In this document: in pieces, positions 3,690-64,000 of the stretch | How positions within the stretch are numbered: position 1 is the first letter of the stretch | Layout of the letters: each line of letters begins with the position of its first letter | Assembly: GCA_965207855.1 (NCBI GenBank) | Contig: OZ242310.1 | Span: forward strand, 5,128,151 to 5,192,150 | Source of the DNA: Candidatus Poribacteria bacterium | GTDB lineage: Bacteria; Poribacteria; WGA-4E; WGA-3G | Reading direction: 5' to 3' | DNA: 64,000 nucleotides | The notes under the pieces: model-generated | The model's input: the letters and a program-made list of their open reading frames with translations, nothing else | What the model was told of the DNA's origin: nothing | The model's database searches: none | Program-made: the position numbers and the translations under genes

Positions 3690-5624
3690 TTAACGCTCGG
3701 TATTAGGGCGAAAAATTACCAAAGTATCACTATTTGTATCAAAATTTCCGCCCGCTGTTATGTCAGTAAAATTTCGAGAAGTCCACCCGATAATATAGGG
3801 TTGAGGGTTCAAACCCGTCCCCATCATCAGATATTGCAATACACCCTCTTGTTGTAGGATTCTCGCGAACGCTTCTCGCGTGTCGTTGAGTTCCACATCA
3901 GGCGGCATCTTTGACGTGGAATGCAGCCGGAGATGCGCTGTCGAAAGTTCGGTCTCTTGTTTCGGATTCGTACGGAGTGGAATGTCTCCTAAGTAAGTTA
4001 TTTGCTTACCTGTGACGCGCCACGCGTCTTCAAGTTCAACGGGCAGTTGCTGCGTAAATGCTTCCTTGATATAAGTCGTCGGGTGCCACGGCTCTACAAA
4101 GGCTCCTTGCAGTTGAACATCTGAATCATGCATCAACGTTCCAATCCGTTGGGTCAGTTCAGTTTCCTGATGGCGAATAAAAGTTCCGTCTGGAAACCCA
4201 AAGGATGTTTCTGTCCGTGCTACAGTCCTTATAGAAACAAAACTTTGTAGATGCGCACGCTGTCGCTCAGGATAGACCGACAAGATCGACAGTTGGTCTG
4301 CTGTCATCTTGTTAGGCAAAATATTTCTCGCCACCGCAATTGTGCACACCGAAAAGAAAATAAAGAGGCAGCTGCCTATCCAGTAACTGGACGATTTTCG
4401 TTTAGACCTCCCAAAATTGAGCAAGAGACCTCCGAAAATGAGAAGGTACACCGGTAAGACCACCGCCAATAGTTTAATGAGTGGCACTTGGGTCGGCATT
4501 TTTGAGAGAAATTGTTTATAAATCCGCTCCTCATGTTGACGAGAAAGCGCGTACTGATCTGCAAGATGTCGTGGAGATTTACCCGACTCACTCAGCAAAT
4601 GTTGCCAGAAGGCTTCACCTATCTTTTGCTCCGAGAGTGGCAACGCATTGTAATCATAAGCGAGACAGAGAATTTGCCCATCCCCAAAGTTTCGTTTTGC
4701 AACGTAAATTTCTTCCTTTGTACCGATTAACGTTTCATATCCGACTTTCGGTGCAAACACAATGCGTTCAAATAAAGTTCCATCGCTACCAGAAGCATGA
4801 AAACCGAGTTGTTCATATAAGGCATCAGAGAGTGTATCTGTTTTTTCTATACCGTTCAATTCAACGGGTAGGAAAGGTTCTACAAAACTGCCACGCAGTG
4901 CGTTAAAGCTACCGCCACCGGACATAATAAGGGTGCCGCCTCGTTGGACCCAATCAAGTAATGCTGTCTGTTTTGCTTTAGAGACATGTCTCTCTGTCAA
5001 AAAGGTCTCACGGATAACAAGGACATCAACAGCACTATAACCGATCCAATCCCGTAGCAGTGAGGTTGAATCCGGTAGGTATTTGACATGCACCTGTGCG
5101 CCGTTGGTAACCTTTAATTGTCTTTTGTCAATAAATCGTTTTAACTTATCACCGCTCGGTGCCAGCACCAACACGAGATAGTCTTTACGTGCGATAGGTG
5201 TGGGTAACAGCACTTCGTGGAACGCATCAGTGTCATAAGCATGTAAGCGTTCACTTTCTACAGGTACCGTGGACAGAAGTTTTATAACAAGTCGGGTCGC
5301 ATTTTTCGGGCAGTAAACATAGAAGTGCTTCTGCTGTCGTCCGGTTGGGCTGAGCCGCAGTGGGGTGGCGTATCGTTCAAAAGGTGTATCTGAAGTAAAA
5401 TTCTGGACCTCCACCACCAGTTTCCCAGTAAATACATCCGGTTCATCCTGACTCCAGACAGTAACAGTCAAGGGTGCCCATGTTCCTGTTTTGTAGCCGT
5501 CGCTGAATCCAAAGGTTGCATTCTCAACTTCCACGGCACCGTAGGCAACAGAGGCTGAAAAAAGCGAAAGGTAGAGCAGTATTCTCATTTCACCTACTCC
5601 AACGGAATTGAGGTTAGAATGCAC
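3690..5624 (-). CDS. large membrane protein of unknown function (signal peptide, central TM pair; GldG/ThuA-like GATase1-type segment)
   Basis: 644 aa; N-terminal hydrophobic signal; LIKLLAVVLPVYLLIFGGLLL and CLFIFFSVCTIAVA TM helices; VDVLVI...LLDWVQRGGTLIMSGG segment resembles class-I GATase-like/GldG domains. Confidence 0.5.
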   Translation of the reverse strand: MHSNLNSVGVGEMRILLYLSLFSASVAYGAVEVENATFGFSDGYKTGTWAPLTVTVWSQDEPDVFTGKLVVEVQNFTSDTPFERYATPLRLSPTGRQQKHFYVYCPKNATRLVIKLLSTVPVESERLHAYDTDAFHEVLLPTPIARKDYLVLVLAPSGDKLKRFIDKRQLKVTNGAQVHVKYLPDSTSLLRDWIGYSAVDVLVIRETFLTERHVSKAKQTALLDWVQRGGTLIMSGGGSFNALRGSFVEPFLPVELNGIEKTDTLSDALYEQLGFHASGSDGTLFERIVFAPKVGYETLIGTKEEIYVAKRNFGDGQILCLAYDYNALPLSEQKIGEAFWQHLLSESGKSPRHLADQYALSRQHEERIYKQFLSKMPTQVPLIKLLAVVLPVYLLIFGGLLLNFGRSKRKSSSYWIGSCLFIFFSVCTIAVARNILPNKMTADQLSILSVYPERQRAHLQSFVSIRTVARTETSFGFPDGTFIRHQETELTQRIGTLMHDSDVQLQGAFVEPWHPTTYIKEAFTQQLPVELEDAWRVTGKQITYLGDIPLRTNPKQETELSTAHLRLHSTSKMPPDVELNDTREAFARILQQEGVLQYLMMGTGLNPQPYIIGWTSRNFTDITAGGNFDTNSDTLVIFRPNTER

Positions 5625-5748
5625 GTCGCATGAATCAGAATCAAAATCAACGGTATGAAGCCCGTATAGGCTTCCGAATCAACGGTATGAAGTCCGTATG
5701 GACTTCACCGGGGCATGAACCGGGGCGAGTACGCCGCAAAACCGCTCC
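5617..5748. repeat. REP-like dispersed hairpin repeat (two AATCAACGGTATGAA-hairpin units plus GGGGC...GCCGCAAAACCGCTCC tail)
   Basis: AATCAACGGTATGAAGCCCGTATAGGCTTC and AATCAACGGTATGAAGTCCGTATGGACTTC units; inverted copy at 42969..43102. Confidence 0.8.
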
Positions 5749-8867: not shown

Positions 8868-10117
8868 TATCTGTGCTCGCTACTCTTCTCTCCTCTATTA
8901 GATTTTCCATTCTTGGGACCAAAGATTCGGAGTTGTTTAACGTTTTCAGTAGAAATTATAGATGCCGGGTCGGGTTGCAATTGATCGCAGCGCAAGAGTT
9001 CTCCGATTGTAAACAGTTTATCACGCACGACAGATCTGCTAACTTCGTCAACAGGAGCAATTACCGTATTTCCATCATGAGCTTCAACAGCGAGAATTGA
9101 ATCCACGTCCAAGTGTTTGTCCTCAAGGAGGTCCGGACTATGACAGGTGGTAATCACCTGTGCCTTGTAGGCAGGATATCGAAACTCATCAAACAACACC
9201 CCCGTCATTGCAGGATAGATCGCGATTTCTGGTTCTTCAATTCCCACAAGTGGTACGCGTTTTCGCGCGTCGTGATTTCCCTGAAACAATGCTACCAGAA
9301 TCCCTAACAAGCGGAGCGTACCATCAGACATATTACTTGCAAGAAATCGCCAAGGGTGTTTGTCTCCCGCTACATCCTGCCTGAACGCTAATGTTTCCTT
9401 GCTGCCAAACTTTTCAATTTCTACGCCACGAACACCAGGCACAATTATTGCCAGATATTCCTCAATGTCTTGTTTCGCAATGGGTGAAAGTTGGGCAAAA
9501 ACACTGGTAAGGTTTCTGCCATCACGAAGCAGCAGATCTCCAGGATCCGGGTCTTGGAGGTCTCGAATTTTATCAGGATTAAGATTGTAAAATCCCATCC
9601 GAGAAAATGCATCGTAGACAGGACGAAATTCGGGCAATCCAGAAGCATTCACCAGATAGAGTCGGTCTGTTGCAGCAGCTGGTGCCACCTTCATACTTGT
9701 GTCTGTCACAACACCATTATCAATACGGAAGTATTCCTTTAGGGTCTGACCCCGCTCATTTTGAACGCTACACTCTTCCGTCCGAACCTCATAACCTCCC
9801 GGTGAACGCTTCCTGATTTGGAAAGCATAGTGGCCCGTAAAATCTTCTGGCAAAGTGAATTCAAGGCGAATGCTAAAATGGTTTGGATGTCCGCGAGAGC
9901 GGCGGAGAACATCATTGATCCCGCCTCGGTCGCGTATCGCATGGTCAAGCGATAAATTCAACGCATCAGCAACAAATCGCAAGGCATCCAAGAAATTACT
10001 CTTGCCCGAACCGTTGCGACCTACAAGGAATGTTAAAGGTCCCAATCGCACATCACACGCAGCAATGCTCTTATAGTTTTTCAGAACGACCCTTGTGATA
10101 AAGGTTGAATCTCTCAT
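8867..10117 (-). CDS. ABC/SMC-like AAA ATPase (AAA_15/AAA_21 type, OLD/AriA-like)
   Basis: 416 aa; Walker A GRNGSGKSNFLDALRF; C-terminal LVGIEEPEIAIYP Walker B/D-loop typical of OLD-family ABC ATPases. Confidence 0.75.
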   Translation of the reverse strand: MRDSTFITRVVLKNYKSIAACDVRLGPLTFLVGRNGSGKSNFLDALRFVADALNLSLDHAIRDRGGINDVLRRSRGHPNHFSIRLEFTLPEDFTGHYAFQIRKRSPGGYEVRTEECSVQNERGQTLKEYFRIDNGVVTDTSMKVAPAAATDRLYLVNASGLPEFRPVYDAFSRMGFYNLNPDKIRDLQDPDPGDLLLRDGRNLTSVFAQLSPIAKQDIEEYLAIIVPGVRGVEIEKFGSKETLAFRQDVAGDKHPWRFLASNMSDGTLRLLGILVALFQGNHDARKRVPLVGIEEPEIAIYPAMTGVLFDEFRYPAYKAQVITTCHSPDLLEDKHLDVDSILAVEAHDGNTVIAPVDEVSRSVVRDKLFTIGELLRCDQLQPDPASIISTENVKQLRIFGPKNGKSNRGEKSSEHR

Positions 10118-10226
10118 GTTACTATACCTTATATCTTAATGTGGACGTTTGCACACAAAGACTGTATCTATATTAGAACTCATAATTACTGATACGCCAT
10201 TGTGAGATTTGCCGCATTTATGAAAA

Positions 10227-10250
10227 CACAAACTAACAGTTTGTGCTACA
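10227..10250. repeat. palindromic box ACAAACT-N-AGTTTGT + GCTACA tail (family member 1 of 5)
   Basis: CACAAACTAACAGTTTGTGCTACA; other members at 11214..11238, 24093..24117 (degenerate), 24291..24317, 50429..50453. Confidence 0.75.
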
Positions 10251-10269
10251 TTTCCGAGCTTCACTACAG

Positions 10270-11151
10270 TTATGCTACCGGAAATGCCTCACCCACGAGC
10301 GGTTTGCCATCCTCCACCTCAATTGTCGGAACGAGGACGTGATTGGGTGACTGTGCGTTATTATAGCAGACATCTTGCGCCATGAAAATCATAACGAACG
10401 CTCGGCGTTGATACTCCGTGACGTTTGGGGGTGTACCGTGCCAGTTGAGGCAGTGATGGAACATACATTCGCCTGCTTTTAATTCCACAGGAACGCCGTG
10501 GCTGATGTCCAACTTCTGCCTTTCCGACCACTGATTCGGCGAGGGTTCACGTCCTTCTTCACGTGCTTTCGCGGCTGCCGCATCCGCCTCGGCTCTTGCG
10601 GTGACAGAGAAGCGTTCATCTTTATGGCTCTTGGGCATAACGTGCATGCATCCGCTATCGACTGTCGCATCGTCCAAAGCAAGCCAGCAGCTGACGATGT
10701 TCGGTGGACTCAGGGGCCAGAAGAAGAAGTCGTGATGGAATCCGAAATGACCGTTGTCGTGGGGTGGCTTGGAAATAACCTGATCGTGCCAGAGACGGAC
10801 TTCGGGGGTATCCAGCAGTGCGCGTGCTGTGCCTGCGATGAGCGGATGGTGAATGGCTGCCTTATAGTGCGGCTCTCGCTTCCACATGTTGACGTATTGA
10901 TGGATTGCGCGTGGGTGGCCGCGCTGCCGATCCAGTTGCGTGTCATGCCGATCGTGTCCGTATTTGAACTCTGGCGACGACTCATCCCCTTCAGTGAGTT
11001 CCAATTCAATGATAGCATCTAACCCAGCACGCATGGCATCAACACCGTCGCTATCCAAAACTTTTCCAAACTTGAGATACCCGTTTTCCTGAAAAAACTT
11101 GATCTGTTCCTGTGTTATCATTGCGCTTCTCCACGTGTATTTGATGTACAT
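10270..11151 (-). CDS. phytanoyl-CoA dioxygenase (PhyH) family Fe/2OG oxygenase
   Basis: 293 aa; HxD...H arrangement (FHHDFFFW ... HCLNWHGTPPN) typical of the PhyH family. Confidence 0.7.
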   Translation of the reverse strand: MYIKYTWRSAMITQEQIKFFQENGYLKFGKVLDSDGVDAMRAGLDAIIELELTEGDESSPEFKYGHDRHDTQLDRQRGHPRAIHQYVNMWKREPHYKAAIHHPLIAGTARALLDTPEVRLWHDQVISKPPHDNGHFGFHHDFFFWPLSPPNIVSCWLALDDATVDSGCMHVMPKSHKDERFSVTARAEADAAAAKAREEGREPSPNQWSERQKLDISHGVPVELKAGECMFHHCLNWHGTPPNVTEYQRRAFVMIFMAQDVCYNNAQSPNHVLVPTIEVEDGKPLVGEAFPVA

Positions 11152-11213
11152 TATATCATTTCTGAAATTATATCTCGTGTTTATACTACGTTTATGAAGG
11201 TGACCCCTGACTG

Positions 11214-11238
11214 CACAAACTAAAAGTTTGTGCTACAA
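11214..11238. repeat. palindromic box ACAAACTAAAAGTTTGT + GCTACAA tail
   Basis: CACAAACTAAAAGTTTGTGCTACAA. Confidence 0.75.
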
Positions 11239-11280
11239 CAGTTCGTGTTTGTTACGGCACACGGCGTGTGCCTACTACTT

Positions 11281-12039
11281 TTAAATCGGAAATTGATGAT
11301 TGCCAGCGGTTAGCCCGCCATCAATGACGAAAACTGCGCCCGTTGCGAAACTTGCCTCATCGGAGGCGAGGAAAAGGGCAGCGTTGGCGATGTCAACGGG
11401 TTGCCCGATGCGTCCGAGCGGATACCACGGCGTGATTTCGTCCAAGATGTTTGGGTTGCGTTCAATCATCGGTTCCCAAACTTCGGTCTGAATTGTTCCG
11501 GGACAGATACAGTTGATACGTATGTTGTCTTTACCGTGCGCGACTGCCATAGAGCGGGTCAGTGCGATAACGCCACCTTTCGCAGCAGAATAGGCGTGAA
11601 TCGCCTGTAACCCGATAAGCCCGTTGACTGAGGCAATGTTGACAATGCTACCGTCACCACGCTTTTGCATGACAGGAATGACGGTGTTGGAACAGTGGCT
11701 GGTGCCTCGGAGTGCGACTGCCAAATTTGCCTCCCAGTTGTTGTTGAGCACATCGGCTGTCGAACAGATGGCGTTGTTCACAAGGATGTCAACTGTGTCG
11801 TAGGTATCAACAGCCTTCGTGATGAGTCGTTCTGCCTCGGTAGCATCAGAGACATCGGCGTTGACAAATAGTGCCTCGCCGCCTGCATCGGTTATGGCAG
11901 AGACAGTTGACGTTCCAGTGGCATCGTTTATATCATTAACAAGGACTTTGGCTCCCTCTTCGGCGAACCGTAGGGCTACGGCTCTGCCGATACCTCGACC
12001 AGCTCCTGTGACAATGGCAATTTTATTATTTAACCGCAT
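11281..12039 (-). CDS. SDR-family short-chain dehydrogenase/reductase
   Basis: [12 protein letters not shown] Rossmann motif; catalytic YSAAK; 252 aa. Confidence 0.9.
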
Positions 12040-14187: not shown

Positions 14188-14252
14188 AGATATTGTTCGT
14201 TAGAAGAAGAGCCACAGCCTAACAGGCTATGCTACAACTATAGGTTTTTTCG

Positions 14253-15422: not shown

Positions 15423-15576
15423 TTTTTAATAGTTGTCAGTCGTCAGCAGTCAGTGGCTCATCGTGGTAGTTGTCAACACTTTCACCTACCACAACGTTCT
15501 TTGACTGTCAATTGGCTGCTGACAACCGATAGCCATTGAAGCATTTACCTCAGTCTGCCGTATAGTGATGCTTCCG

Positions 15577-20332: not shown

Positions 20333-20440
20333 AGGACTTACGCAAACTGGACAGATAAAGGACGTTTTTGCTGAAAACGTCGTTATTTCGGTGTTTTTAA
20401 CCGGCTAAATCCCTAACCCCCCATATCCCCCTTATCAGGG
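20333..20440. repeat. degenerate copy of the MITE-like element (left TIR + internal core, right TIR missing)
   Basis: AGGACTTACGCAAACTGG ... TTTTTAACCGGCTAAATCCCTAACCCCCCATATCCCCCTTATCAGGGGGG, immediately before RBS and ATG 20459. Confidence 0.55.
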
Positions 20441-21360: not shown

Positions 21361-21470
21361 GATAGACATTTCGCCCCGCTGGGGCTTTGGTCCTGGGGAA
21401 ATCGCACGTGCTATAGACATTTCGCCCCGAAATCAACGGTATGAATGCGCGTGTGGCATTCACCGGGGGC
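21361..21470. repeat. composite REP-like repeat (ATAGACATTTCGCCCCG module x2 + AATCAACGGTATGAATGC-hairpin)
   Basis: GATAGACATTTCGCCCCGCTGGGGCTTTGGTCCTGGGG ... TATAGACATTTCGCCCCGAAATCAACGGTATGAATGCGCGTGTGGCATTCACCGGGGG. Confidence 0.75.
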
Positions 21471-22061: not shown

Positions 22062-22240
22062 CGCTTCTAATACAACCCCCCTTTATCCCCCCTTATCAGG
22101 GGGGAAAGTCACTCGCTTCTAATACAACCCCCCTTTATCCCCCCTTATCAGGGGGGAAAGTCACTAACCGCGCGCTCTGAAAACGCGATTGAATTCACCG
22201 TTTATTCCCCCTTATCAGAGGGGAAGGTCACCCTTTATCC
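22062..22240. repeat. tandem array (2 exact 52-bp units + 1 degenerate) of a palindromic CCCCCCTTATCAGGGGGG element
   Basis: CGCTTCTAATACAACCCCCCTTTATCCCCCCTTATCAGGGGGGAAAGTCACT repeated exactly at 22062-22113 and 22114-22165; degenerate third copy about 22200-22240. Confidence 0.85.
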
Positions 22241-36554: not shown

Positions 36555-36595
36555 CTTCTTTTGTCCTTAGCCTAACCTGATACTGCTTTTTCTTA

Positions 36596-37660
36596 TCATT
36601 TTTGCTTGAGATGCTTCTCTACGAGTAAATCAATGAGTGGTCGATAAGTTGAGTTGTGCAAATGTTCTTTGTACCAGTCCACATAGGTACCATCTTTTAG
36701 ATGTTCTTGAATCATTCGATTTTCTTCCAAAAGCGTCCATAGATTATGGGTAGCTCGATTACAAAAGCCAAAAGTTCTATTTTTTTTTAGCCCTTCCAAA
36801 CCATACTCCTGACAAGCGGGACATTGGCAATTTTCCAATTTTTTTAATTCTTGTGGATTTGGCACAGGGACCTTCCAATTGCCAAGGCTAGCCACAGAAC
36901 GATCAGCAATGCCAGGTAACTGTACAAGTCCCCGTGCGGCGCGAACGCGCCAGCCTGCTGAATCTACTGAATCCATTCCTAACAAAGACGCGATATGCAG
37001 TGTAGCTGTTCCGCCCACTCCAAAGAGATGTAAATTCTGATCAGCAAACACGTTGCGGATCTGATGAATTTTGTCCAGCAAATCTTCACTGGACATAGAT
37101 TTAGGTGCACGCAAAAGATTAGGTACAATTCCGCCAATAGCAAAAATTGGTTTTTCTCGGAGTTGTGCATTCGCTTCAAACTGACAAAGATATTTGTCTA
37201 AGTGACGACTAATATGAAGGACCGGCACATACTCATCATGAGAATACTTCTGATTAACCGCCATCGTTTGTTGAAGACACTTAAGCTGATCCTTATCGTT
37301 CATATCCGGCATAGGAATGTAGTCTTGAGGAACTGCATACCAATTAGGCTTTGCTTGTTCCACAAATTCTTCGTACTCGAGGCGTGGTACTTCAACCCCA
37401 TTTTGCGAAAATTTGAACGCGCCGTTATCCAAGTAGATCTCCATATGTTCTGGAACGCCAAGACTAGTGTGTAACCCCATTTCCATGGCGCGGCAACGGC
37501 GAGTAGGACTTTGATGAAAATACACATAGGAAACCATTACAGCACGTAACTTTTCCAAATAGTAAGGTGAATCAGGATTCCATACCAGCGGCTTAATACT
37601 GCCAAGATTCAGCCCCGCAACGATTTCCATACCTAATCTCCTCTGATTATCATAAGACAC
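36596..37660 (-). CDS. TGT-family transglycosylase-like protein, divergent second paralog (DpdA-like candidate)
   Basis: 354 aa; zinc site CQCPACQEY...THNLW parallels Tgt CTCYTCQNF...H; LDNGAFKF in place of Tgt [10 protein letters not shown]; FGVGGTATL like Tgt GVG motif; canonical tgt is already present at 537..1712. Confidence 0.7.
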   Translation of the reverse strand: MSYDNQRRLGMEIVAGLNLGSIKPLVWNPDSPYYLEKLRAVMVSYVYFHQSPTRRCRAMEMGLHTSLGVPEHMEIYLDNGAFKFSQNGVEVPRLEYEEFVEQAKPNWYAVPQDYIPMPDMNDKDQLKCLQQTMAVNQKYSHDEYVPVLHISRHLDKYLCQFEANAQLREKPIFAIGGIVPNLLRAPKSMSSEDLLDKIHQIRNVFADQNLHLFGVGGTATLHIASLLGMDSVDSAGWRVRAARGLVQLPGIADRSVASLGNWKVPVPNPQELKKLENCQCPACQEYGLEGLKKNRTFGFCNRATHNLWTLLEENRMIQEHLKDGTYVDWYKEHLHNSTYRPLIDLLVEKHLKQK

Positions 37661-37666
37661 CGGTCC

Positions 37667-39439
37667 TCACCTATTGCTGGTTTGATTGCGAACACCTTCA
37701 AGGTACTTAAAAGCATTAATTTCCTCTCGCTCCGCTTGAGAATTAGGTTTTTTCATTTTCACTAAAATGGGAAAATTTACCATCTGACCCGATAATAGTG
37801 CCTCGCCTACCTCAAGATTCGGAAGTAAGTTTGCTTCCTCCTCACCTAACGACTCAACGACCCTTTTCACAAAAATCTGATCAGCTGGGTTTACCATTCG
37901 CATGATAATATAAGAGTTGCATTGAGAAAGAGTGGTCTCGTCAAGTCGCGAAGGCCGTTGACTGATTACAACCAATCCGATGTTGAATTTCCTTCCTTCC
38001 TGAGCAATCTGCTTAGTTATGGTGATGGACTGTTGTTCGGCAGAAGAAGTACCGCGCCCAGGAACGAAATTGTGCGCTTCCTCAAGTACTAATAAAAAAG
38101 GCCATTGAAGTTTTTTGGCAACTTTGGCCTCAAATAATTCTTCCGCAATAATACTGTAAATTGTTGCCTGGAAATCTCCAGTATAGCCTGCCATGGACAC
38201 AATTGAAATTTTACCATCCTGAACTAGCTCCTTACGATCTTGAGGCATAGGTTTCGAGTCACCCGCAATCTCTTGATTGATTCTTTCCATTCTAAGAAGT
38301 TGGGATGCTGCCCTCCGAGCTCTTTTGTATATTCCCTCTAGAGTTCCAGGTATGTGTCCTTGCAAAGGTAGATTCCTCCAACAGATCTGACTTAGATACT
38401 CAAAATCGTCACGATTACCACTACGGGCATCTCTTATTGATTGAACAGCAGCATCCGCTATATTGGCAATTAGCCAAAGATCGGGTTTAATACCATTTTG
38501 ATGAATCCAATTATCATTAAGTCTATTAGCTAGCCAGTCTATCCTTTCATGTTCTTCAGCTTCGTAAAATCTCCTGGTTGCAGCAAATAAATCACCGAAT
38601 AAGGTCTCCATTGGAGGTGTTAGGTTGTATCCAAGATTGTTAACAATCTGTGCCACTGTATCTGCTTCTTGCTCAAAAATCGGGATGGTAGCGTAGTACC
38701 GATCAACCCGCTCATGATCTTGAAACTGTTCACTATCTGCTAGTCCTGAGTAATCCCCATGCGGATCGAAAACAACCATTGGATATTGTTTATCCGCCAA
38801 TTGTTCAATAATCCGCCGGGCTGCCCAACTCTTTCCAGCCCCTGTCATTGCAAGGATAGCCAAATGGCGAGTAACTATGGCGTGTCCATCCACTTTCACA
38901 TCAACCTTAGAACGGTTAGAAAGAGTAGCAATATCTAGTGCCCTAGTTTGATCCTCTGCTAAATTTCCCACTAAAATACGTTCTAGATCTTTTGAACCTG
39001 GTCCATAAGCACTAGTAGCTGGTTTAGGAGGATATCGCAAACTTTCAAGTTTACCGGATTCTTTATTTTTTGACTCACCGGACTCTTCACTTTCTAACTC
39101 AGCGGATTCTTCCTTTCCTAATTGTTCATATCCCAGTACTTGGCATACGGCTGATACCATCTCACGACTTAGAGAAAGTACAGTTTCCAGAGGATCAGTC
39201 TGTGTTTCTGCCAGTTCGTGCCCCGCTTCAGCTGGGAAGAGAGGGTTGATACGTTCTATCCTTTGGACCTTTGCCCAAACCCTTATTTCTTTTAACTCTT
39301 CGCTATCTCCCAACTCATTTAACATAGCATCCACTGCGATGATATCCTGTTCACGGATCGCTTCGGGCGTTACAGCAAGACGAAATTCTTTACTTGTACT
39401 TTCACCAACAAGTGTCCCAACGATTCTTTCTTTTTCCAT
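37667..39439 (-). CDS. HerA-like (DUF87/FtsK-HerA superfamily) ATPase
   Basis: 590 aa; Walker A LAMTGAGKS; LLVLEEAHNF Walker B; GRKFNIGLVVISQRPSRLDETTLSQCNSYIIMRMVNPADQ block characteristic of HerA/DUF87 ATPases; N-terminal barrel-like region. Confidence 0.75.
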   Translation of the reverse strand: MEKERIVGTLVGESTSKEFRLAVTPEAIREQDIIAVDAMLNELGDSEELKEIRVWAKVQRIERINPLFPAEAGHELAETQTDPLETVLSLSREMVSAVCQVLGYEQLGKEESAELESEESGESKNKESGKLESLRYPPKPATSAYGPGSKDLERILVGNLAEDQTRALDIATLSNRSKVDVKVDGHAIVTRHLAILAMTGAGKSWAARRIIEQLADKQYPMVVFDPHGDYSGLADSEQFQDHERVDRYYATIPIFEQEADTVAQIVNNLGYNLTPPMETLFGDLFAATRRFYEAEEHERIDWLANRLNDNWIHQNGIKPDLWLIANIADAAVQSIRDARSGNRDDFEYLSQICWRNLPLQGHIPGTLEGIYKRARRAASQLLRMERINQEIAGDSKPMPQDRKELVQDGKISIVSMAGYTGDFQATIYSIIAEELFEAKVAKKLQWPFLLVLEEAHNFVPGRGTSSAEQQSITITKQIAQEGRKFNIGLVVISQRPSRLDETTLSQCNSYIIMRMVNPADQIFVKRVVESLGEEEANLLPNLEVGEALLSGQMVNFPILVKMKKPNSQAEREEINAFKYLEGVRNQTSNR

Positions 39440-39441
39440 GA

Positions 39442-41001
39442 TTACCTACCTTCTGCAGTTGGCCGAAAGATCCAATCTCGGTGTTTCATATAAATCGCCT
39501 GCACCAACACCTTTCGCATATCTTCATCGCTAACTTCACCCTTCTGCAGGCTCACCCCTAGTGTATAACGAATCATTTTGTCGTACGCTTTTGTCATCCA
39601 GCTAGGCACATGGGCAAACTTATCCACGATATCCAAACCGACGGGAAATCCATAATTAGGCAAAAGACGCGAATATAAATATACACGCCTCACAGCTTCT
39701 TTCACTTGGTCTTCTCCAAGTTTAGAAAAAACCTCAACCCTAATGGGTTCAGTATTTTCGTTAACCTGAACATAGGTGCCCTTTATGGAAGGAAAACCAA
39801 ACTGCCTGCCATCTCTCAAGCAGGAAAAATCCACTTGCGAACTTTCTGATTCATTTGGAAGTCGAATTTGACCTGACCCCAAACCGATAGTCGACTTGTT
39901 TACTTTCCAAGACTCAGAATATTCTCCAGTATTAAGAAGCCAAGCCAAGAGAAGATTATCTGTATAACCTAACCTATCCATCAAATTTTTAGGAGAAGTA
40001 AGGTCAGAAAGACCAAACATGTCATTGAAATAGTTCTGTTTTCCCTTTTCACGTAGACTACGAAAAACACGTTTAAGTAATATCGCCTCAGAGAAATTCC
40101 GCGACTTTCCTCGTTCCACTACTCCCGCAATGATAGGACGAGGTTCCCTATTTAGTGCCACAGAAATCAATTTTCTATAGAGAAATGCAATCCATGACAA
40201 CGGTTCAAAAAGCCGAAGATCTGCCCATTCATCGGACCTCCCGCCAGCCATATCTGGATAAATATCAAGACGGGCTTCTTTAAGAAAATCTTCCTTCAAC
40301 TGATTTGCTTGTTCTTTATCACCCGAATAGTGTTTTAGAAACAGGTTAATATCCGCTTCAGTAAAAGGTGTATGACCTGCATAAGCGTCCATCAAATAAA
40401 CCAGCGGACCTTGGAACAATAGGACTCTTATATCTGGATTGCGGTTCAACGCTGAAAGTCCACCCAGTAACTCAGCAGTAATGCGGACAATATCTGTGAA
40501 GTCCTCCCGCTCCTTACTGCCTCCTTCAAGATCTCCGAAGACTACCGGGTAATAGCCAAAATTCTCCCGCTCTGCCAGATTCCCTTCACCGACACGTACT
40601 GCATAAGATCCTACGCGCAACAAGATAGGGACTTGAGATAATTCTGACTGACCAATTCCGCCATCAATAAAACTAACTAGTTCGTTTTGAAACTCCTCCC
40701 AAACTGTATTTTTGACTGAAAACGTCTGAAGGATAGGATTTTCTCGCGTTCCTCTATTAGTCTGATCTATAGCCTGACGCAAATGAGTTATAAAACAAGC
40801 TGTATTACGATAATAGTTATCTCGCAAATTTTCAGCTACTAACAGCGATTTTTCCATTATCTTCATCATTAACTGAGGCTGACGAAGAAGATCCTCTTGT
40901 ACATCGTTCTCGGGCAATCGCTCATTTACCTCCGATTGGTCATCTTGTGTATCTCTATCAGGAGTACCCGTATCAATAGATCTCGTATTTAATTTCACCA
41001 T
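39442..41001 (-). CDS. NurA-like nuclease candidate (HerA partner), function unproven
   Basis: Start reassigned to ATG 41001 (MVKLNTRS), preceded by a strong GGAGG RBS and 7 nt after the upstream stop; FIDGGIGQSE resembles the NurA N-terminal Asp motif; stop abuts the HerA start. Confidence 0.4.
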   Translation of the reverse strand: MVKLNTRSIDTGTPDRDTQDDQSEVNERLPENDVQEDLLRQPQLMMKIMEKSLLVAENLRDNYYRNTACFITHLRQAIDQTNRGTRENPILQTFSVKNTVWEEFQNELVSFIDGGIGQSELSQVPILLRVGSYAVRVGEGNLAERENFGYYPVVFGDLEGGSKEREDFTDIVRITAELLGGLSALNRNPDIRVLLFQGPLVYLMDAYAGHTPFTEADINLFLKHYSGDKEQANQLKEDFLKEARLDIYPDMAGGRSDEWADLRLFEPLSWIAFLYRKLISVALNREPRPIIAGVVERGKSRNFSEAILLKRVFRSLREKGKQNYFNDMFGLSDLTSPKNLMDRLGYTDNLLLAWLLNTGEYSESWKVNKSTIGLGSGQIRLPNESESSQVDFSCLRDGRQFGFPSIKGTYVQVNENTEPIRVEVFSKLGEDQVKEAVRRVYLYSRLLPNYGFPVGLDIVDKFAHVPSWMTKAYDKMIRYTLGVSLQKGEVSDEDMRKVLVQAIYMKHRDWIFRPTAEGR

Positions 41002-41008
41002 TATCCTC

Positions 41009-41812
41009 CTATCCTTTTGAACAAATTTCAACCCCAAGTTGCTGCAAAACCCGTTTTGCTTCGTTTGTGTGAAAAGCACTCACAGGTAAACCAGTTAATT
41101 GGTTAACTACCCACTTGAGAGGGACTTGTTTATTTTCTATCTGCACATACCACATCTGGTATTTGGGAATATTGCGTTCTTTTGCAAGTGCAACATTTAT
41201 TCTCTCCATTATTTGTTCGGGAGTTAGTACAATTTCAATGCCCCGAAGAGATGCCCGACCTTGTTTAACAACCTCCGTATGATTATCGGGAGGTAGTGAT
41301 ACACTCTTACGTAGCCAGCTGTGAAGTTCTGCCAATTTGCATCCCATCGATCCTTGAGAAACGGTCACATTGAGATTAGTGGAAGTTACCGATTTATACC
41401 CATCTAATACCCTCAAATAGTCTCTCCCCATGCTTATGAAAAACTCTTGGTATTGTTTGCTATTTAAAATTTGATCAAGTTGGTTCAGAGTCGGTTTTTG
41501 CAATTCTTTAACTCGTTGCGGTGTCATTCGATGATCATAGTTAGGAATTCGTTCACCATCCGAAATCAATCCAAATCTTGCTGATAAAATATACACATCA
41601 AGTGATTGTTTCCCAGATGGGTGTGCACGCAGGAACTTACTCATCACCCGAAATGGCGGTCCATCATAGCGTTTTAAGGCGGGTAGTAAACCTTGATCGG
41701 AGCGTTTCGCCCTGGAACACGAGAGAATCAGCAAGCGTAGATTTGAAGAAGTTTCTTTTTTACACATTGTATTTACTATTCCAAGTTTACTATTCCAACC
41801 CGTTATAAACAT
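41009..41812 (-). CDS. hypothetical protein with N-terminal LLILSCSRAKR motif (DUF328/YaaA-like start), operonic with NurA-like/HerA/TGT-like genes
   Basis: ORF in track; true start may be the internal Met (MCKKE, about 41767); stop 7 nt upstream of the NurA-like start. Confidence 0.5.
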   Translation of the reverse strand: MFITGWNSKLGIVNTMCKKETSSNLRLLILSCSRAKRSDQGLLPALKRYDGPPFRVMSKFLRAHPSGKQSLDVYILSARFGLISDGERIPNYDHRMTPQRVKELQKPTLNQLDQILNSKQYQEFFISMGRDYLRVLDGYKSVTSTNLNVTVSQGSMGCKLAELHSWLRKSVSLPPDNHTEVVKQGRASLRGIEIVLTPEQIMERINVALAKERNIPKYQMWYVQIENKQVPLKWVVNQLTGLPVSAFHTNEAKRVLQQLGVEICSKG

Positions 41813-41920
41813 GTCGCCCCGAAATCAACGGTATGAATGCCATATGGCATTCCCCGGGGACTTGGTGGAGGGGATGTCTATTTTTCTATAGACATATCGC
41901 CCCGCTGGGACTGTCCTCAG
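41812..41920. repeat. composite REP-like repeat (same family as 21361..21470)
   Basis: TCGCCCCGAAATCAACGGTATGAATGCCATATGGCATTCCCCGGGG ... TATAGACATATCGCCCCGCTGGGACTGTCC. Confidence 0.75.
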
Positions 41921-41977
41921 TGATATTGTAACGACTTTTTCTATGAGGTATTTCAAGTAAACAGAATCGTGGAATAA

Positions 41978-42003
41978 GTCGCGAGCACAGCTCGCTCCTA
42001 CAG
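41978..42003. repeat. GCGAGC hairpin box with CTCCTACAG tail (copy 2)
   Basis: GTCGCGAGCACAGCTCGCTCCTACAG. Confidence 0.7.
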
Positions 42004-42073
42004 CAAAAAGCTGGAATTCGGGAATACCTCCTACGAGAAAACTAAACGCTCTTACTGTCTTACTAAGTCTTCG

Positions 42074-42817
42074 TTATCGATTTTGTATAATCTCAAGTAA
42101 TTGTTGCGGGTCTTGTTTGACTTGCTCAAAGACCTGAAAGCCTTCACTACATGCCGCTTCACACAGTTTTCTCAAGACGACTCCCTTTATCGACCAATTC
42201 GTGGCACGGATGGCTTTTGCCAAATTTCGTCCTGTCTCAATAACGTGGACATTGGACAAACTCTCATCAACGACACGCCTATGGCTCGGTGCGAGTAGGA
42301 AAATCAGGGGTGCTGACCGTTCAATCTCAAAGACGCGTTGTAGGGATACAATATCTTCTTGCCTCAAGAGCGAGAAAACGAGGTCGTAGCGTTCAATTAA
42401 AGCAGCTATGGACTCAGGAACGCCGGTCTCGCCGAACTCTAAGACCTCAGCGTCGTGAAGGGGTGCCATATCAAAAGGAATGATAGTGTCGTCCTCGTTA
42501 ACAGGCGTTTTTCTTTCGTCAACACGACACGCATACCACGGAAAATAAAGATCGAGCGTCGTCTCACCATACCCTTCGTGTCCGCGAATTTGTTTTAATC
42601 CGTGGCGCAATTGCGTATGCATGGGACCCGTGAACATCTCTCCAGCGGGTGCGGTGTAGTCTCTATCTTCGTGATACCACCCCTCGGCATTGTAACCGCA
42701 GAGTTCTTTTATTCTCGCCTTAAGGCGTTCCGGTGAAACGGTATCCTCACGCTGAAGAGGGTTATCGGGTTTATATTTTTGTCCGGTTGTGTAAGGACTC
42801 AAGATCAATATTTTCAT
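42074..42817 (-). CDS. hypothetical protein with N-terminal MKILILSPYTTGQK motif; flanked on both sides by REP-like repeats
   Basis: 247 aa ORF; N-terminal motif related to the start of the 41009..41812 protein; no recognisable catalytic motif. Confidence 0.5.
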   Translation of the reverse strand: MKILILSPYTTGQKYKPDNPLQREDTVSPERLKARIKELCGYNAEGWYHEDRDYTAPAGEMFTGPMHTQLRHGLKQIRGHEGYGETTLDLYFPWYACRVDERKTPVNEDDTIIPFDMAPLHDAEVLEFGETGVPESIAALIERYDLVFSLLRQEDIVSLQRVFEIERSAPLIFLLAPSHRRVVDESLSNVHVIETGRNLAKAIRATNWSIKGVVLRKLCEAACSEGFQVFEQVKQDPQQLLEIIQNR

Positions 42818-42968
42818 GTGTGAATAGTCATAAGTTAATAGTTATAAGTTATAAGTTAAGGACAAGAGGCTCTTTAACTTCAGGACGGACACAATTTTGG
42901 TTAGATGGAGATCTTTGAAAAACACAGACGTTTGGGTGGCACGGGTTGGGAAACCCAACCCCTACGCA

Positions 42969-43102
42969 GGTTTGCGGCGTACTCGCCCCGGGGAATGCCA
43001 TAAGGCATTCATACCCCGGTTCATGCCACACGGCATGAATACCGTTGATTTAAAGCCTTTATAGGCTTTATACCGTTGATTCTGATTCATGCGACGTGCA
43101 TC
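42969..43102. repeat. REP-like dispersed hairpin repeat, inverted copy of 5617..5748
   Basis: GGTTTGCGGCGTACTCGCCCCGG...GAATGCCATAAGGCATTC...CATGCCACACGGCATG...AAAGCCTTTATAGGCTTT...TTGATTCTGATTCATGCGACGTGCATC matches the reverse complement of 5617..5748. Confidence 0.8.
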
Positions 43103-46324: not shown

Positions 46325-46434
46325 TCACTCCTAAGACATTAGAATAGTTGTTAGTTCAATAGCCGTCAGCCGTTAGCCGTCAGGAAGAGGACTCTGGTTT
46401 ATCAGAAAATCTTTTTACTGACAGCGACTCCAAA

Positions 46435-46507
46435 CGCGCCTGGGAGGAATCGAACCCCCGACACGAGGCTTAGGAAGCCCCTGCTCTGTCCCCTGAGCTA
46501 CAGGCGC
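46435..46507 (-). tRNA. tRNA-Arg (anticodon CCT)
   Basis: Reverse complement folds as a cloverleaf: acceptor GCGCCTG/CAGGCGC, D-arm GCTC-AGGGGACA-GAGC, anticodon stem GGGGC/GCCTC with loop TTCCTAA, T-arm GGGGG-TTCGATT-CCTCC; discriminator G; no encoded CCA. Confidence 0.85.
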
Positions 46508-46515
46508 ATATACCT

Positions 46516-49405: not shown

Positions 49406-49477
49406 GTTTTTAATAGTTGCCAGTTATCAGTCGTCAGTCATCAGTTAAAGAGAGATTTGAGGCATCAGCATCCTCTT

Positions 49478-55800: not shown

Positions 55801-58800
55801 AAACATAGCAGTCTACCTTATGTTTCACGAAACCAAACGACAACTGGAAATCCATCGGATTATCGAGTGATACCGACCCATGAAAACAGAGCCATTTTTA
55901 GGGTTGTCCTGAAAGATAAAAACGAATCCGAAGCCATCGGAAACTACATGCGAAACCGGGATGTCCCTGCTTCCTCAATCCAACCGCTCTCCCTCTCGAC
56001 CGAAGAACGGCTTATTATGGAACTCGGTTACGATTTCAGAGATGTCGTTGCAGAATGGGGAGGCTTTTCAAACGGTCTATCCGCATCAGGTGTAGATTAT
56101 TCGGAACGCGGTTTCCTCGAAATCTGGCTACGCGTCCAAGGCGACGATAATGTGACACTGCACTTGAACCTCGGTGTCGTGAACGAAGATACCGATGAAG
56201 ACCAGCGGTTGGACAGCGAAGACCTTCCTGATACGCTAATTGACACAAATGGGGATGGCAGTGTCGATGCCTTAGATTTGGACTTGGAGAATCTCTCAGA
56301 CGTTGACCGCTATCGCGGAAACGGCGCACTGGATACCGGTGAAGACGTAGGATGGAATTACGATGGACCTCTGGGTGGCATCTCTGTGGGTGAAGATAAC
56401 CAGATCCTGGACAGCGAAGACCTCAACGGGGACGGTGTACTCGATGGTGCCGATGCCTACTTTGAAATCTCAATCCCACTCAATGAGATCCCGAATGAAT
56501 GGATCAAAAGCAAAAATGCAAATGACTGGATGTTCCTGAGTATTCCGCTCTCGAAATTTACGCCAACGGGTTCGCGGCTCCCCAGTCTTGTATTCGTGCA
56601 ACACTTCCGGTTCTGGTTGAGCAAAAACGCACCCGGCAACGCACAAGGCACCTTGCAGTGGGCATCCATAGAAATTGTTGGAAACAAATGGCAACAAGGA
56701 ATTATAACCCGCTCCGCCTCGCAAATCAATCCGGAGATTGAACCTACACTTAGCGATCCTGCGCTTACACCTACAGATGAAACACTCTCAACAAGCACAA
56801 TCGTCGAGGATACACTCGAAAAGTTCATCATTGGCACAAAAGACAACTTCAGCTACGATGATTATCAGAGCGCGTATCTTGACATTGAGGACAATGAACT
56901 CTTCAAAAAACTGCATCCATTTACAGCAACGTCCCTCGGCTTTCAAACGCAACAGCAACGCGAACAGACGCTGAGTCTTGAGTATTATCTCTTTCCGGGA
57001 TCTTACGGCGTTACTTCTAAACAACTGAAAGGTTTAACGCAAAGCGAAGGGCAAGACTTTAGCAAGCACGATACGCTCCGATTTTGGCTCTATGGTGATA
57101 AAAGCGATACAACTTTTGTTTTGCAACTCGCCCCGACCGTCCGCACCGGCTATCGCAGCTCGTTTTATAGTTCAGACCCGTTCGTTGATCAGACACAGGA
57201 AGAAGAGGTCAATGTTTTTGAGAATCTAACAGACTATTATGAATATACGGTGCCGATCGACTTTGATGGCTGGAAATTGATTGAAATTGATCTACAGGAC
57301 TTGCACAGGAACGTCTATCCCGATGTAGTGGTCAGCGATCCGCAGTCAGCAATCAGCGATCCCTCTCTTGTAGGAACAGAGATACCACCCCCCACTACGG
57401 ATAGCCAACCGATAGACGATGCCCCCGATGGACACCCTGATGGCTTCGCGATTCGTGGGAGAAACAGCGCGCGACTCTCGATTAAAAACATTGGTGGTAT
57501 CCTATTGGGTATTCGTAATGACACCGAGCGTGAAATCAGCGGTGAGATCTGGGTGAACGAGATCCATCTCGGCGATCCGCTTGTTCGTGCCGGATGGGCG
57601 CGGCGTGGCAATATGTCAGTCGGTCTCGGTAATATTGTTAAGTTGCGGGGCGGTTATGCGAGCCAAGACAAAGACTTTGAAAGCGGTGCTGGCGAAGTCG
57701 GCAGACAACGGCTTTCTTCACGCGGATACAGCACGACGAACAACGATTACAACGTTGATGCAGATGTTACGCTCTTCTCGTGGTTACCCGTCCGATATGC
57801 CATCCGCCAACAGGAAACGGAAACCGAGAGTCAGCGGGGCGGTTATAGTAGTTTTCAGAGCGGGAAAAGCGAAATTCGGAGTCGAGACTTTTCTGTTCAA
57901 TTCAACCGAAATCCGTTTCCAAACCTCGGCTTCGCTTATAACTATCAAGATTTCTGGAACGAACGTCAAGGCACGCAAATTAGCCATCTCTATACCGGCA
58001 GTTTCCGTTACGATCTCGGTTCAAAGCTCGGCGTTAATGCGCAGTATCGCCACGAGGATATACTTGCCAAACCGGAAACCGCGACAGATACGGCTTCAAC
58101 TTCCAGCTCCTATTATAGTTACGGTTACGGCAGAAATCGGGACGAAAAGACAGATAGTGGTACAATAACGTTAAATATTAATCCGACAAACGTCTTCAGC
58201 CTGAGTCCAACTTACGACATCAGCCGGACGCTTGAAAGACGAGAAGATCGAAGTTCCAGTGTGTCCTTTGGTAGTAATGTAGCAACAGCGTCAGAACCGG
58301 CTGAACCCGAAGAAGAGATAGAACCCGACTTTTCAATTGCGCAACGCGAACATCGCTTGTCGCTCACACCGCGTCTGAATCGGGATCTGCTTGGGATGCG
58401 ACCGACTGTCACAAGCCGGATGAGTTTCCGTGAGAATTGGTTCAGCGAAGAAAAAAATGCGTCGCTCAATGGAAACGTCAGCCTTGGTATGAATCTACGC
58501 ATCGAAAAATGGTTCGGATGGCTCTTAAATGGCAGTCAGCAGTCAGCAATCGGCAATCAGCAATCAGCAGATCGTGTTCCAGGAGAAAACGCTGTATCTG
58601 CCACAAAGGAGTTACCGATAACCGATAACCAACAACCGACAACTCTTACAGAACAGTTACGTGAAGATGGTATTGATGAGACCCAAATCCAAGAGCTTGA
58701 AGAAAAGCGTGGTGATTGGATTGAACGCGATAAAACAGCGGAAGGCGAACCGCGAATAGCGAATAGCGAACCGCCAACGGTTTCCAACAGCCAACAACAG

Positions 58801-59634: not shown

Positions 59635-59800
59635 CATCCTTAGCATAACCCAGAAAAAAAATTGAACAGAAAAGCAATCTATGGTATAGTGGCTATCGGT
59701 TAAAGGTTGTCGGTTAAGAGACCTCGTGGAATTCAATCACTACGTACGTAACTGCCACAACCAATAACCAATAACCAACAACCATCAGCAAAGGATAAAT

Positions 59801-62551: not shown

Positions 62552-62647
62552 ATGATTAAATCTGAGCTGCTACGGACGATGTCCTTAGCAGTATTTCAAT
62601 TGTTAAAAAAGCATTCATGACCTAAAGTCGCTTGTTCCAATTTAGAA

Positions 62648-62692
62648 AATCAACGGTATGAATGCCGCATGGCATTCCCCGGATGCCGACAA
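62648..62692. repeat. REP-like hairpin repeat unit
   Basis: AAATCAACGGTATGAATGCCGCATGGCATTCCCCGGATGCC. Confidence 0.7.
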
Positions 62693-62725
62693 CGGAGGCA
62701 TCGCCCGAGAGGAGTAGTTAAAAAA

Positions 62726-63835: not shown

Positions 63836-64000
63836 CAAGTAGTTGTCGGTTGTCAGTTAAGAGGCAACGTGTAACAACCCACCTTAGCTTGGGCGTTTCA
63901 ACAAGGGTAGATTGTTACCAAAGTCTTCTTAACCCACAACCGACAGCCGATACCCAACAACCATTAACACAAAAATGTCCTCCAAAATAGTATATAAAAA

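Follow-up and report, generated by a model that had tools for sequence, protein, structure and literature searches.

Repetitive extragenic palindromic (REP) repeats (definitions in PMC3733652, PMC3116915 and PMC2817692) and REP-like repeats in general have mostly been investigated in Proteobacteria, for which movement in the form of inverted doublets, together with a flanking REP-associated tyrosine transposase (RAYT), is assumed. Here, a repeat of this kind was analysed in a stretch of 64,000 nucleotides (nt) of Candidatus Poribacteria DNA (contig OZ242310.1, positions 5,128,151 to 5,192,150; hereafter the window), which belongs to an uncultivated phylum of sponge symbionts. The repeat is a unit of 35-36 nt composed of an AATCAA-containing tag and a hairpin, and it occurs singly, in tandem and within larger composites. 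Most likely, at a probability that we put at roughly 0.6, these units constitute a REP-like, non-autonomous family of very small mini-transposons which move as single-stranded DNA. The REP-like character had already been proposed in a first-pass annotation of the window and was borne out as a family of tag plus hairpin; no host function is implied by it. Searches of the literature on Poribacteria and on repeats of the REP, REPIN (paired REPs forming a hairpin), RAYT or MITE (miniature transposable element with inverted repeats) type yielded no description of such repeats in this phylum.

The REP repeats and bacterial interspersed mosaic elements (BIMEs) as well as the REPIN-RAYT systems of Enterobacteria and Pseudomonas share with the Poribacteria unit a length of about 35 nt, which is within the 20-40 nt typical of REPs, an imperfect palindrome and a conserved unpaired tag directly 5′ of the stem. 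Further likenesses are the extragenic location, sub-families with complementary stems and a phylum with a single-copy Y1 transposase gene that is flanked by hairpin repeats. A copy number of more than 100 per genome, as in REPs, would be a further one if an extrapolation from a non-random sample of about 190 kb holds. Differences were found in the tag, which is AATCAACG followed by GTAT and not GTAG or CGTC, in the arrangement of the units, which are single or head-to-tail and do not form inverted doublets or alternating arrays, in the repeat that flanks the RAYT-type gene, which is another hairpin (here called the second module) and not the AATCAA unit, and in the enrichment of the units in divergent spacers and not at the 3′ ends of genes. 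Since neither a GTAG or CGTC tag nor inverted doublets with a flanking RAYT were found, the repeats were not filed as REPINs but as a REP-like variant. The general phenomenon is known, and the description that suits the case best is that of a variant on the theme of REP-like mini-transposons.

Two other groups of mobile DNA, and one group of small repeats, are close enough for comparison. Palindrome-associated transposable elements are miniature derivatives of IS200/IS605 insertion sequences and are moved as single strands by the Y1 transposase TnpA. The Poribacteria repeats are similar to them in that neither a target duplication nor terminal inverted repeats are present, that hairpins lie close to the ends and that the two ends differ from each other (ATGCACG...GCCGCA in the composite); they differ in that the single unit has one hairpin and in that no parent element was found among the inspected elements with tnpB genes. 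IS1397 and ISPpu9/10 are full-size, protein-coding insertion sequences that target REP/BIME hairpins; palindromic repeats likewise serve as sites in Poribacteria, but the inserted element is there itself a hairpin of 35 nt. Finally, the small dispersed repeats SDR1-8 of Nostocaceae, reportedly described by Elhai and coworkers in 2008, are said to be very small mobile repeats of 21-27 nt that are confined to one clade and whose shared structure is backed by compensatory changes. They reportedly insert in their own copies and in other short repeats (SDR5 in HIP1) and adjoin short tandem repeats, and an RNA intermediate is said to have been proposed for them. Compared by description only, the SDRs are like the Poribacteria unit in nesting and compensatory structure and differ from it in phylum, in size and in route, i.e. 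an RNA intermediate versus a Y1 candidate.

The GTAG and CGTC super-families of REPs (Di Nocera et al. 2013, PMC3733652) have, in the sections of that paper dealing with them, the same modular build, in which an unpaired tag at one end is combined with a stem of 6-9 bp and a short loop, and sub-families with alternative complementary stem residues. GTAG is described there as degenerate at positions 2 and 3, with GTGG in one family; these sections report neither GTAT nor a 5′ extension of 9 nt, and Poribacteria are not among the phyla that they name. The small dispersed repeats of Nostocaceae are cited in passages of PMC5861425 and PMC3116915.

Structure and distribution of the tagged unit

All five loci listed in the first-pass annotation hold the described combination of tag and hairpin. 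The 12-mer AATCAACGGTAT matched the window exactly seven times (5645, 5677, 21431, 41823 and 62648 on the plus strand, 43039 and 43070 on the minus strand), and with up to two mismatches 14 matches were obtained versus 6.1 expected, a number reached in 0 of 100 shuffles. Directly 3′ of each of the seven tags a hairpin is located (stems GAAGCC, GAAGTCC, GAATGC, GAATGCC in two cases, AAAGCC(T) and TCATGCC), and for every tagged stem the 3′ half is the exact complement. An eighth hairpin of the same build, GGG-TAT-GAATGCC-TTAT-GGCATTC-CCCG on the minus strand, is present without the AATCAAC tag (Table 1, copy B). All window copies are intergenic, and every one of them lies between co-directional genes.

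The unit starts with the tag (C)AAATCAA, which is followed by an imperfect palindrome, and can be written as AATCAA + [CGG TAT GAATGCC N4-5 GGCATTC C CCG]. The parts of the palindrome are CGG, a TAT bulge, the 7-bp stem with a loop of 4-5 nt, one unpaired C or A after the second stem half, and CCG. Folding indicated that CGG and CCG form a lower helix, nearly invariant and paired in 85% of cases; the TAT bulge and the single unpaired C/A lie between this helix and the main stem. In the alignment of 51 distinct units GGTAT is invariant, and the 4-mer adjoining the stem, preceded by AATCAACG, is GTAT in 51 of 51, in place of the GTAG or CGTC by which REPs are recognised. Of the 4-mers that immediately precede the stem of a perfect hairpin in the window, GTAT is also the most frequent (8 cases), with GTAG among the next (5 cases). 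An octamer had been said to follow the units often; exact CCCCGGGG follows only two units, and the usual 3′ flank is (A/C)CCG, often with GGG after it. Other stems are found behind the same AATCAACG tag, namely CCAAATGC, CCGAAT(G/A)C, CAGCATGC and CTGAATAC, and there the lower stem is perfectly paired. As the tag precedes at least five different stem classes, these were regarded as a super-family sharing one tag.

The first six bases of the tag additionally form a tandem array, (G/A)AATCA in three to four copies, just 5′ of many units (window 5632-5650; L124 around 11040-11075; L067 around 800-830). The array has three copies in the window versus four or more in L124, an 8-mer variant AAATCAAG is also present, and slippage or traces of repeated insertion could be its origin.

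Compensatory variation of the stems, first noticed in the few window copies, was confirmed in the 51 distinct units: six of the seven stem pairs have changed on both sides and 96.4% of the cells of the 7-bp stem are paired. The observed values were reached in 0 of 500 shuffles, and pairing fell to 28-45% when the partner was slid by 1-3 columns. Because the 51 aligned units had been picked for having a hairpin, the count of unselected tag seeds is the fairer test of pairing, and the variety of matched stems is the real signal of the alignment. Among the matches listed for tag-only seeds in the genome scan, a perfect hairpin of at least 6 bp was found right after the tag in 53 of 74 seeds from Poribacteria loci and a long-loop hairpin in 5 further ones; for other taxa the numbers were one perfect and three long-loop hairpins in 64 seeds. 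The sub-family stems with matching 3′ halves are GAATGCC, GAACGCC, GAAGCCC, GAAGTCC, GAAGTGC, GAATGAC, GAATGCT, AAAGCCT and TCATGCC. Stem mismatches of the G.T and C.A types are equally common (six each), so that neither strand is favoured for wobble pairs.

For the genome scan, one genome per bacterial or archaeal species was searched with the pattern AATCAACGGTATNAA, which fixes the first stem bases (NAA) and therefore biases the seeded copies to GAA and AAA stems. At least 119 stretches were recovered. From the 119 matches listed, at least 54 are located in Candidatus Poribacteria genomes of many different isolates and have the hairpin, whereas the remaining 65 belong to unrelated taxa and seem to be matches by chance; hairpin-bearing copies in genome assemblies were, among these listed matches, found only in Poribacteria. 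The metagenome scan gave at least 120 stretches, and the unit with its CCC tail is present in 101 of 121 loci from the metagenome and viral scans, on contigs of unchecked origin. One contig filed as viral (L134, IMG/VR contig IMGVR_UViG_2744054414_000001) carries a genuine tagged unit, an untagged hairpin and tandem heptamers at 1380-1450, and this contig is a prophage region from a Poribacteria genome or else a piece of bacterial DNA with a wrong viral label.

Stop-free segments of 150 aa or more make up 82% of the bases but contain only 11 of 90 tags. About 19 units were counted in approximately 190 kb of the window and its syntenic relatives, a non-random sample from which about 500 units per 5-Mb genome can be extrapolated. 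The window itself has a G+C content of 48% and contains the cyanobacterial HIP1 octamer only twice. Its SecF and GHMP kinase are 96% and 100% identical, respectively, to Poribacteria proteins, and its other genes, which encode sulfatases, a glycoside hydrolase of family 2 (GH2) and PhyH proteins, do not conflict with this assignment. A cyanobacterial origin, to which heptamer repeats and small hairpins had seemed to point, was rejected in view of the two HIP1 copies and the SecF and GHMP kinase matches.

Empty sites, nesting and gene context

The copies were compared with syntenic relatives whose nucleotide identity to the window is 97.2% for L120 (over 19 kb), 97.3% for L125, 94.3% for L124, 88.7% for L121, 86.6% for L126 and 83.8% for L122; in this orthologous comparison, window sites 21430 and 62647 are overlapped by no other locus. 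L120 is without exactly 130 nt, 42973-43102, downstream of secF, and the junction TAGCAT^AACCTGCG has no duplicated bases and no ambiguity. These nucleotides correspond to one of two composites in the window, copies A and B, which are described below. At the site of copy A, a composite is present in L123 and L125 and absent in L126, and between two alcohol dehydrogenase genes a composite is found in L121 and none in the window or L120. The unit at 41822 is located in the loop of a second module, and the ortholog in L122 has an empty 3-nt loop at this place (ATAGACATAG CACCCC tac GGGGTG).

Exact empty paralogues, with the two flanks directly abutting, were found for four units (TACGC^GTGTGG, TTTGGC^GGGTAT, GGAATC^GGAGTT and GGGTG^GGGTCT). 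According to these paralogues the unit is 35-36 nt long and has (C)AAATCAACGG and CATTCCCC(G) as its ends, and empty sites with one or two mismatches agree within 1-2 nt; the boundaries are fixed only to 1-2 nt, as host loops vary (A/G) and C runs vary in length. No target duplication of more than 1 nt was seen at the junctions and the ends of units and composites are not mutual inverted repeats, so that the elements are not MITEs in the classical sense.

Some units had been described as fused to a second module. The second module is real, with four matches of ATAGACATTTCGCCCCG at up to three mismatches versus 0.13 expected, but it is not fused to the unit: it consists of ATAGACAT and a GCCCC/GGGGC hairpin, is an independent REP-type hairpin, and has the unit sitting inside its loop. 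Empty copies of the module are present at window position 21362 and at the orthologous place in L122.

Two inverted copies of about 130 bp had also been reported, and they correspond to composite copies A and B, which have identical ends (a 26-nt arm is 100% complementary) and different internal units. Copy A is hosted by a degenerate hairpin, GAGGTTAGA^...^AAACCGCTCC, ending in CTAT. Inside copy A, L124 has 56 extra nt, comprising one complete unit and the 5′ half of a TCATGCC hairpin, and hence the half-hairpin at 5712-5725 represents the 3′ part of a hairpin in the loop of which the units at 5644-5710 are located. An intact TCATGCC hairpin with the loop GTGT is present in copy B, the DNA of which folds with -34.9 kcal/mol (z = -7.8). 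Composites exist in a minimal form of 64 nt with a single unit and in forms of 101-141 nt with two or three units. Thirteen of the 14 listed composite copies are located inside a hairpin formed by pairing of their flanks, and most have CTAC after the 3′ arm, as do GTAG REPs; the one copy without such a flank-paired hairpin is copy B of the window, at a distance of 7 nt from a GTAG REP. In this way a nest is formed, in which a REP contains a composite, the composite a TCATGCC hairpin and this hairpin the tagged units. The composite of 120-129 nt in the window is a mobile element in its own right which now moves as a unit.

Other repeats are the predominant hosts of the units as well. These include the second-module loop (twice in the window, twice in L037, and in L072 and L106), other units, the loop of a GGCGAATAC...GTATTCGCC hairpin, the loop edge of GTAG-type REPs and the foot of a CCCCCTTATCAGGGGG hairpin. 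After removal of tandem neighbours and duplicate flanks, a junction stem of 5 bp or more can be formed by the flanks of 24% of the units versus 5.5% of local controls. Canonical GTAG hairpins are present in the window (Table 1), where the family GTAG CACAAACT ttt AGTTTGTG has six copies, including those at 14212, 24090 and 24290; classical REPs thus coexist with the AATCAA-tagged family.

A BIME-like arrangement, as suggested in the first-pass annotation, was not found: within 150 nt, 185 of 275 tags (67%) are singletons, and neighbouring tags are in direct orientation in 44 cases versus inverted orientation in 5. With long open reading frames (ORFs) as a rough stand-in for genes, 56% of the sites are located between co-directional, 28% between divergent and 16% between convergent genes, compared to 74%, 13% and 13% of background spacers. 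These figures bear on the RNA element under structural selection that the first-pass annotation also proposed. In such a reading the hairpins would serve the host at the level of RNA or transcription, as terminators, mRNA stabilisers or small RNAs, and the stem changes would reflect selection on RNA structure. A stable conserved hairpin with covariation and the position of all window copies between co-directional genes would be expected of such elements, and REPs elsewhere were reported to act as RNA elements (PMC3733652). However, the orientations are mixed (three sense and two antisense sites in the window; 29 sense versus 51 antisense among units between co-directional genes), the promoter-side divergent spacers are the enriched ones and not the convergent spacers, and G.T and C.A mismatches are equal in number, neither strand being favoured for wobble pairs. 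Intrinsic terminators have a T-run, whereas none follows the hairpin on either strand, the 3′ flank being CCCCGGG and that of the other strand ATACCGTTGATT. Moreover, copies differ between genomes that are 94-97% identical, many copies are located within other repeats, and an Rfam search of the window, with the gathering score of each family as threshold, gave a tRNA-Arg (46434-46508) as the sole match. An RNA function was therefore considered very improbable.

The repeats might also be binding sites of a host protein that are kept for chromosome organisation, comparable to BIMEs with IHF and gyrase, their spread being secondary. They are intergenic, structured, estimated at hundreds of copies per genome and present across many Poribacteria species, as such sites could be; yet the sites are not conserved between close relatives, and copies pile up inside each other instead of being spaced. 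This was the least probable of the explanations considered.

Candidate transposase and mode of movement

A search for a RAYT gene, put forward together with the first-pass annotation, was positive at the level of the phylum. The Poribacteria chromosome OX638316.1 (L104) encodes a 159-aa protein with the Pfam domain Y1_Tnp (PF01797, E = 4.7e-27), the only Y1 gene found by a relaxed motif screen of approximately 1,480 ORFs in 548 kb of Poribacteria sequence; a Y1 motif screen of 768 kb of metagenome loci found none. Homologues of the L104 protein are numerous, some being named "REP element-mobilizing transposase RayT" or "REP-associated tyrosine transposase" by their sources and one being named as a transposase of Candidatus Poribacteria. 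The homologue P0280 has the same neighbours, a glycosyltransferase and a polysaccharide deacetylase gene, on several contigs from three samples, and its behaviour resembles that of a vertically inherited single-copy gene.

The Y1 gene is flanked in four contexts (L104, L127, L128-L133 and L255) by arrays of ATA(G/A)ACATA with a stem of 6-7 bp and a loop of 3 nt. The arrays are inverted upstream and direct downstream, with the tags facing the gene, and their stems co-vary (GCACTCC/GGAGTGC, TTGCTCC/GGAGCAA, TCGCTCC/GGAGCGA and CACCCC/GGGGTG). These arrays are the second module, so that in all four contexts the RAYT-type gene is associated with this repeat.

The AATCAA units are probably mobilised in trans by a Y1 (HUH) transposase of the RAYT/IS200 type, which would cut and rejoin single-stranded DNA. 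The hairpin and the tag would then be its recognition signal, and only copies with matching stem halves would be copied, copies with broken stems ceasing to spread; an enzyme of this selectivity would explain sub-family stems that differ and are nevertheless complementary. HUH chemistry would leave no duplication, read hairpins and reach loops when hairpins extrude, and repeated insertion would build nested and tandem composites. A circular single-strand junction would be predicted to join ...CATTCCCCG (...CCCCG) to CAAATCAACGG.... The mover could be the known RAYT type in trans or another paralogue, or a different route could be used, such as the RNA route reportedly proposed for the SDRs.

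Spread via an RNA intermediate or another non-HUH route, without involvement of the RAYT, would account for the flanking of all examined RAYT-type genes by the second module and never by AATCAA units, and also for the SDR-like behaviour of the units, i.e. their tiny size, self-nesting and the short tandem repeats nearby. No reverse transcriptase or other candidate was encountered, in screens that included no systematic search for one. Clean insertion without duplications by or in hairpins fits single-strand HUH chemistry instead, and GTAG REPs and a RAYT-type gene coexist in the phylum. We therefore consider such a route rather unlikely.

It was also considered that the units do not form a family of their own but stem from a single larger insertion sequence, such as an IS200/IS605 element with tnpB, either as its fragments or as miniatures made from its ends. 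Genes for tnpB (OrfB_IS605, Cas12f-like) do occur in the Poribacteria loci L121 (2355-2990), L130 (1-1210, adjoining the RAYT-type gene) and L156 (about 9500-10600), and the ends of the composite are fixed and non-identical as in IS200/IS605. As parents these tnpB elements were rejected, since their ends are unrelated: the element in L156 has a CCCACACCTAAAGGAGTGGG hairpin at both ends, and the ends of those in L121 and L130 are without AATCAACG. Furthermore, no protein recurs among the genes between inverted tags, the single units of 35-36 nt have exact empty sites of their own, and the majority of the tags are singletons. An origin from one larger insertion sequence is accordingly unlikely.

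The favoured reading, movement of a REP-like mini-transposon family as single-stranded DNA, has to be weighed against several observations. We infer the direction of each presence/absence event (gain versus loss), which cannot be polarised with certainty, and some of the differences may be deletions between short direct repeats made by the elements themselves; the 56 nt of L124 are a likely case. Compensatory stems could partly arise without selection, by intrastrand template switching or templated repair in palindromes. The tag is not that of GTAG or CGTC REPs, the units are mostly single or head-to-tail and not the inverted doublets of REP movement, and no significant strand preference was seen when the units were compared with local GC skew (odds ratio 1.5-2, p = 0.2-0.3); on complete chromosomes, the positions gave no more than a hint of a switch from one half to the other. 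A single Y1 gene was found in the roughly 1.3 Mb of sequence with units, and the unit closest to it is 5 kb away. AATCAACGG units were found neither at the Y1 genes of L127-L133, searched with a covariance model, nor at that of L255, searched directly for the tag; as no AATCAACG unit flanks the examined Y1 genes, the cognate repeat of the known RAYT-type gene is the second module.

A more specific proposal, which we consider less likely than not, is that the AATCAA unit is a self-transposing single hairpin of about 35 nt which lands preferentially in other hairpin repeats, including the cognate REPs of the RAYT, and would thereby be a parasite of a REP-RAYT system. It could be moved by a RAYT that it hijacks although the tags are unrelated, or else by some enzyme or route that has so far not been connected with elements of this kind. 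If so, few mobile DNA elements for which both empty and filled sites are documented would be as small as the unit, and its tag would be a third class beside GTAG and CGTC.

The Poribacteria repeats depart from the usual picture of REP movement in being single hairpins of 35 nt with a different tag, which show clean presence/absence between near-identical genomes, are nested in hairpins and are not the repeat local to the RAYT gene. They are a tractable case for studying the minimal substrate of hairpin-guided DNA transposition, and a census is possible because complete long-read Poribacteria chromosomes exist. Several of the larger length differences between the window and its relatives are due to these repeats, which matters for genome assembly and comparison, and the repeats are a ready-made strain-typing marker for Poribacteria in sponge metagenomes.

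Feature positions and neighbouring variation

Table 1. Positions of tagged units, composites, second modules and GTAG REPs in the window.
Feature	Position	Strand	Composition and remarks
Composite copy A, 120 nt	5619..5738	+	Ends ATGCACGTCGCATG...CGAGTACGCCGCA; two tagged units and one half-hairpin inside
Tagged unit	5644..5676	+	AAATCAACGG TAT GAAGCC cgtata GGCTTC CG
Tagged unit	5677..5710	+	AATCAACGG TAT GAAGTCC gtat GGACTTC ACCG; 53.9 bits
3′ half-hairpin, TCATGCC type	5712..5725	+	GGCATGA ACCGGGG; 5′ half still in L124
Second module, empty	21362..21385	+	ATAGACATTTC GCCCC gct GGGGC
Second module with unit (21430-21465) in loop	21413..21470	+	ATAGACATTTCGCCCCG [AAATCAACGGTATGAATGCgcgtgtgGCATTCACCG] GGGGC; unit 53.8 bits
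Second module with unit (41822-41856) in loop	41805..41861	+	Unit 60.2 bits; L122 loop empty, GCACCCC tac GGGGTG
Head-to-head second-module tags	41867..41911		Inverted remnant 41867-41881 (-); empty degenerate copy ATAGACATATCGCCCCGCTGGGAC 41888-41911 (+)
Composite copy B, 129 nt	42973..43101	-	Same ends as copy A
Copy B, AAAGCC(T) unit	43051-43081	-	
Copy B, TCATGCC unit	43017-43050	-	
Copy B, untagged hairpin	42989-43016	-	GGG-TAT-GAATGCC hairpin
Single tagged unit	62647..62681	+	AAATCAACGG TAT GAATGCC gcat GGCATTC CCCG; 54.6 bits; between GH2 and 2-hydroxyacid dehydrogenase genes
GTAG REP hairpin	42943..42965	-	GTAG GGGTTGGG ttt CCCAACCC; 7 nt from copy B insertion point
GTAG REP hairpins	10249, 11236, 50451, 51691	-	GTAG CACAAACT ttt AGTTTGTG (three copies); GTAG GTGCGGTT ttcc AACCGCAC

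At the single unit near the end of the window, the mechanically assigned start of an ORF (62669-63835, ATG at 62669) falls within the repeat hairpin; the 2-hydroxyacid dehydrogenase gene more likely begins with the ATG at 62727, located 3′ of GAGGAG. An extra hairpin, GATGCC gacaacgga GGCATC, follows the unit at 62682-62702.

Downstream of secF, a segment of about 150 nt (42817-42972) that includes the GTAG REP is present in the window and L120 and missing in L121 (89%) and L122 (84%); it is an older insertion layer at the same spot as composite copy B. A gene of 247 aa (42074-42817) without a Pfam match is bracketed by the inverted repeat clusters 41805-41911 and 42973-43101, and since it keeps its place downstream of secF in relatives without the repeats, it is probably not a mobility gene. 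The cluster at 41805-41911 also forms the right edge of a 5.5-kb segment (36568-42083) that is absent from the 97% identical L120. This segment contains genes for a TGT/DpdA-like protein, a HerA-type ATPase (PADLOC HerA, E = 2e-61), a protein with a NurA domain and a DUF6884 protein that weakly matches DpdC / PDC-M57A, and it has the appearance of a variable anti-phage defence island. L124 (5155-5668) has about 350-380 extra nt, two units among them, between its short-chain dehydrogenase and PhyH genes in comparison to the window (11151-11281), where only a GTAG REP is present.

A further hairpin family, (A)ACCCCC..ATCCCCCTTATCAGGGGG, was found at 20414, 22062-22232 and 48283, with a tandem duplication of 52 nt at 22062-22165; elsewhere in Poribacteria, it is often a host of AATCAACGG units, which are then located immediately 5′ of the hairpin. 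Tandem repeats of 6-7 nt (CAGTCAG, CAGCAAT and CAACCGA types) are located at 15423-15454, 46353-46384, 49407-49438, 57331-58568, 59755-59790 and 63934-63969, i.e. in spacers and in the region of a 2247-aa ORF, and are reminiscent of the short tandemly repeated repetitive (STRR) sequences of cyanobacteria.

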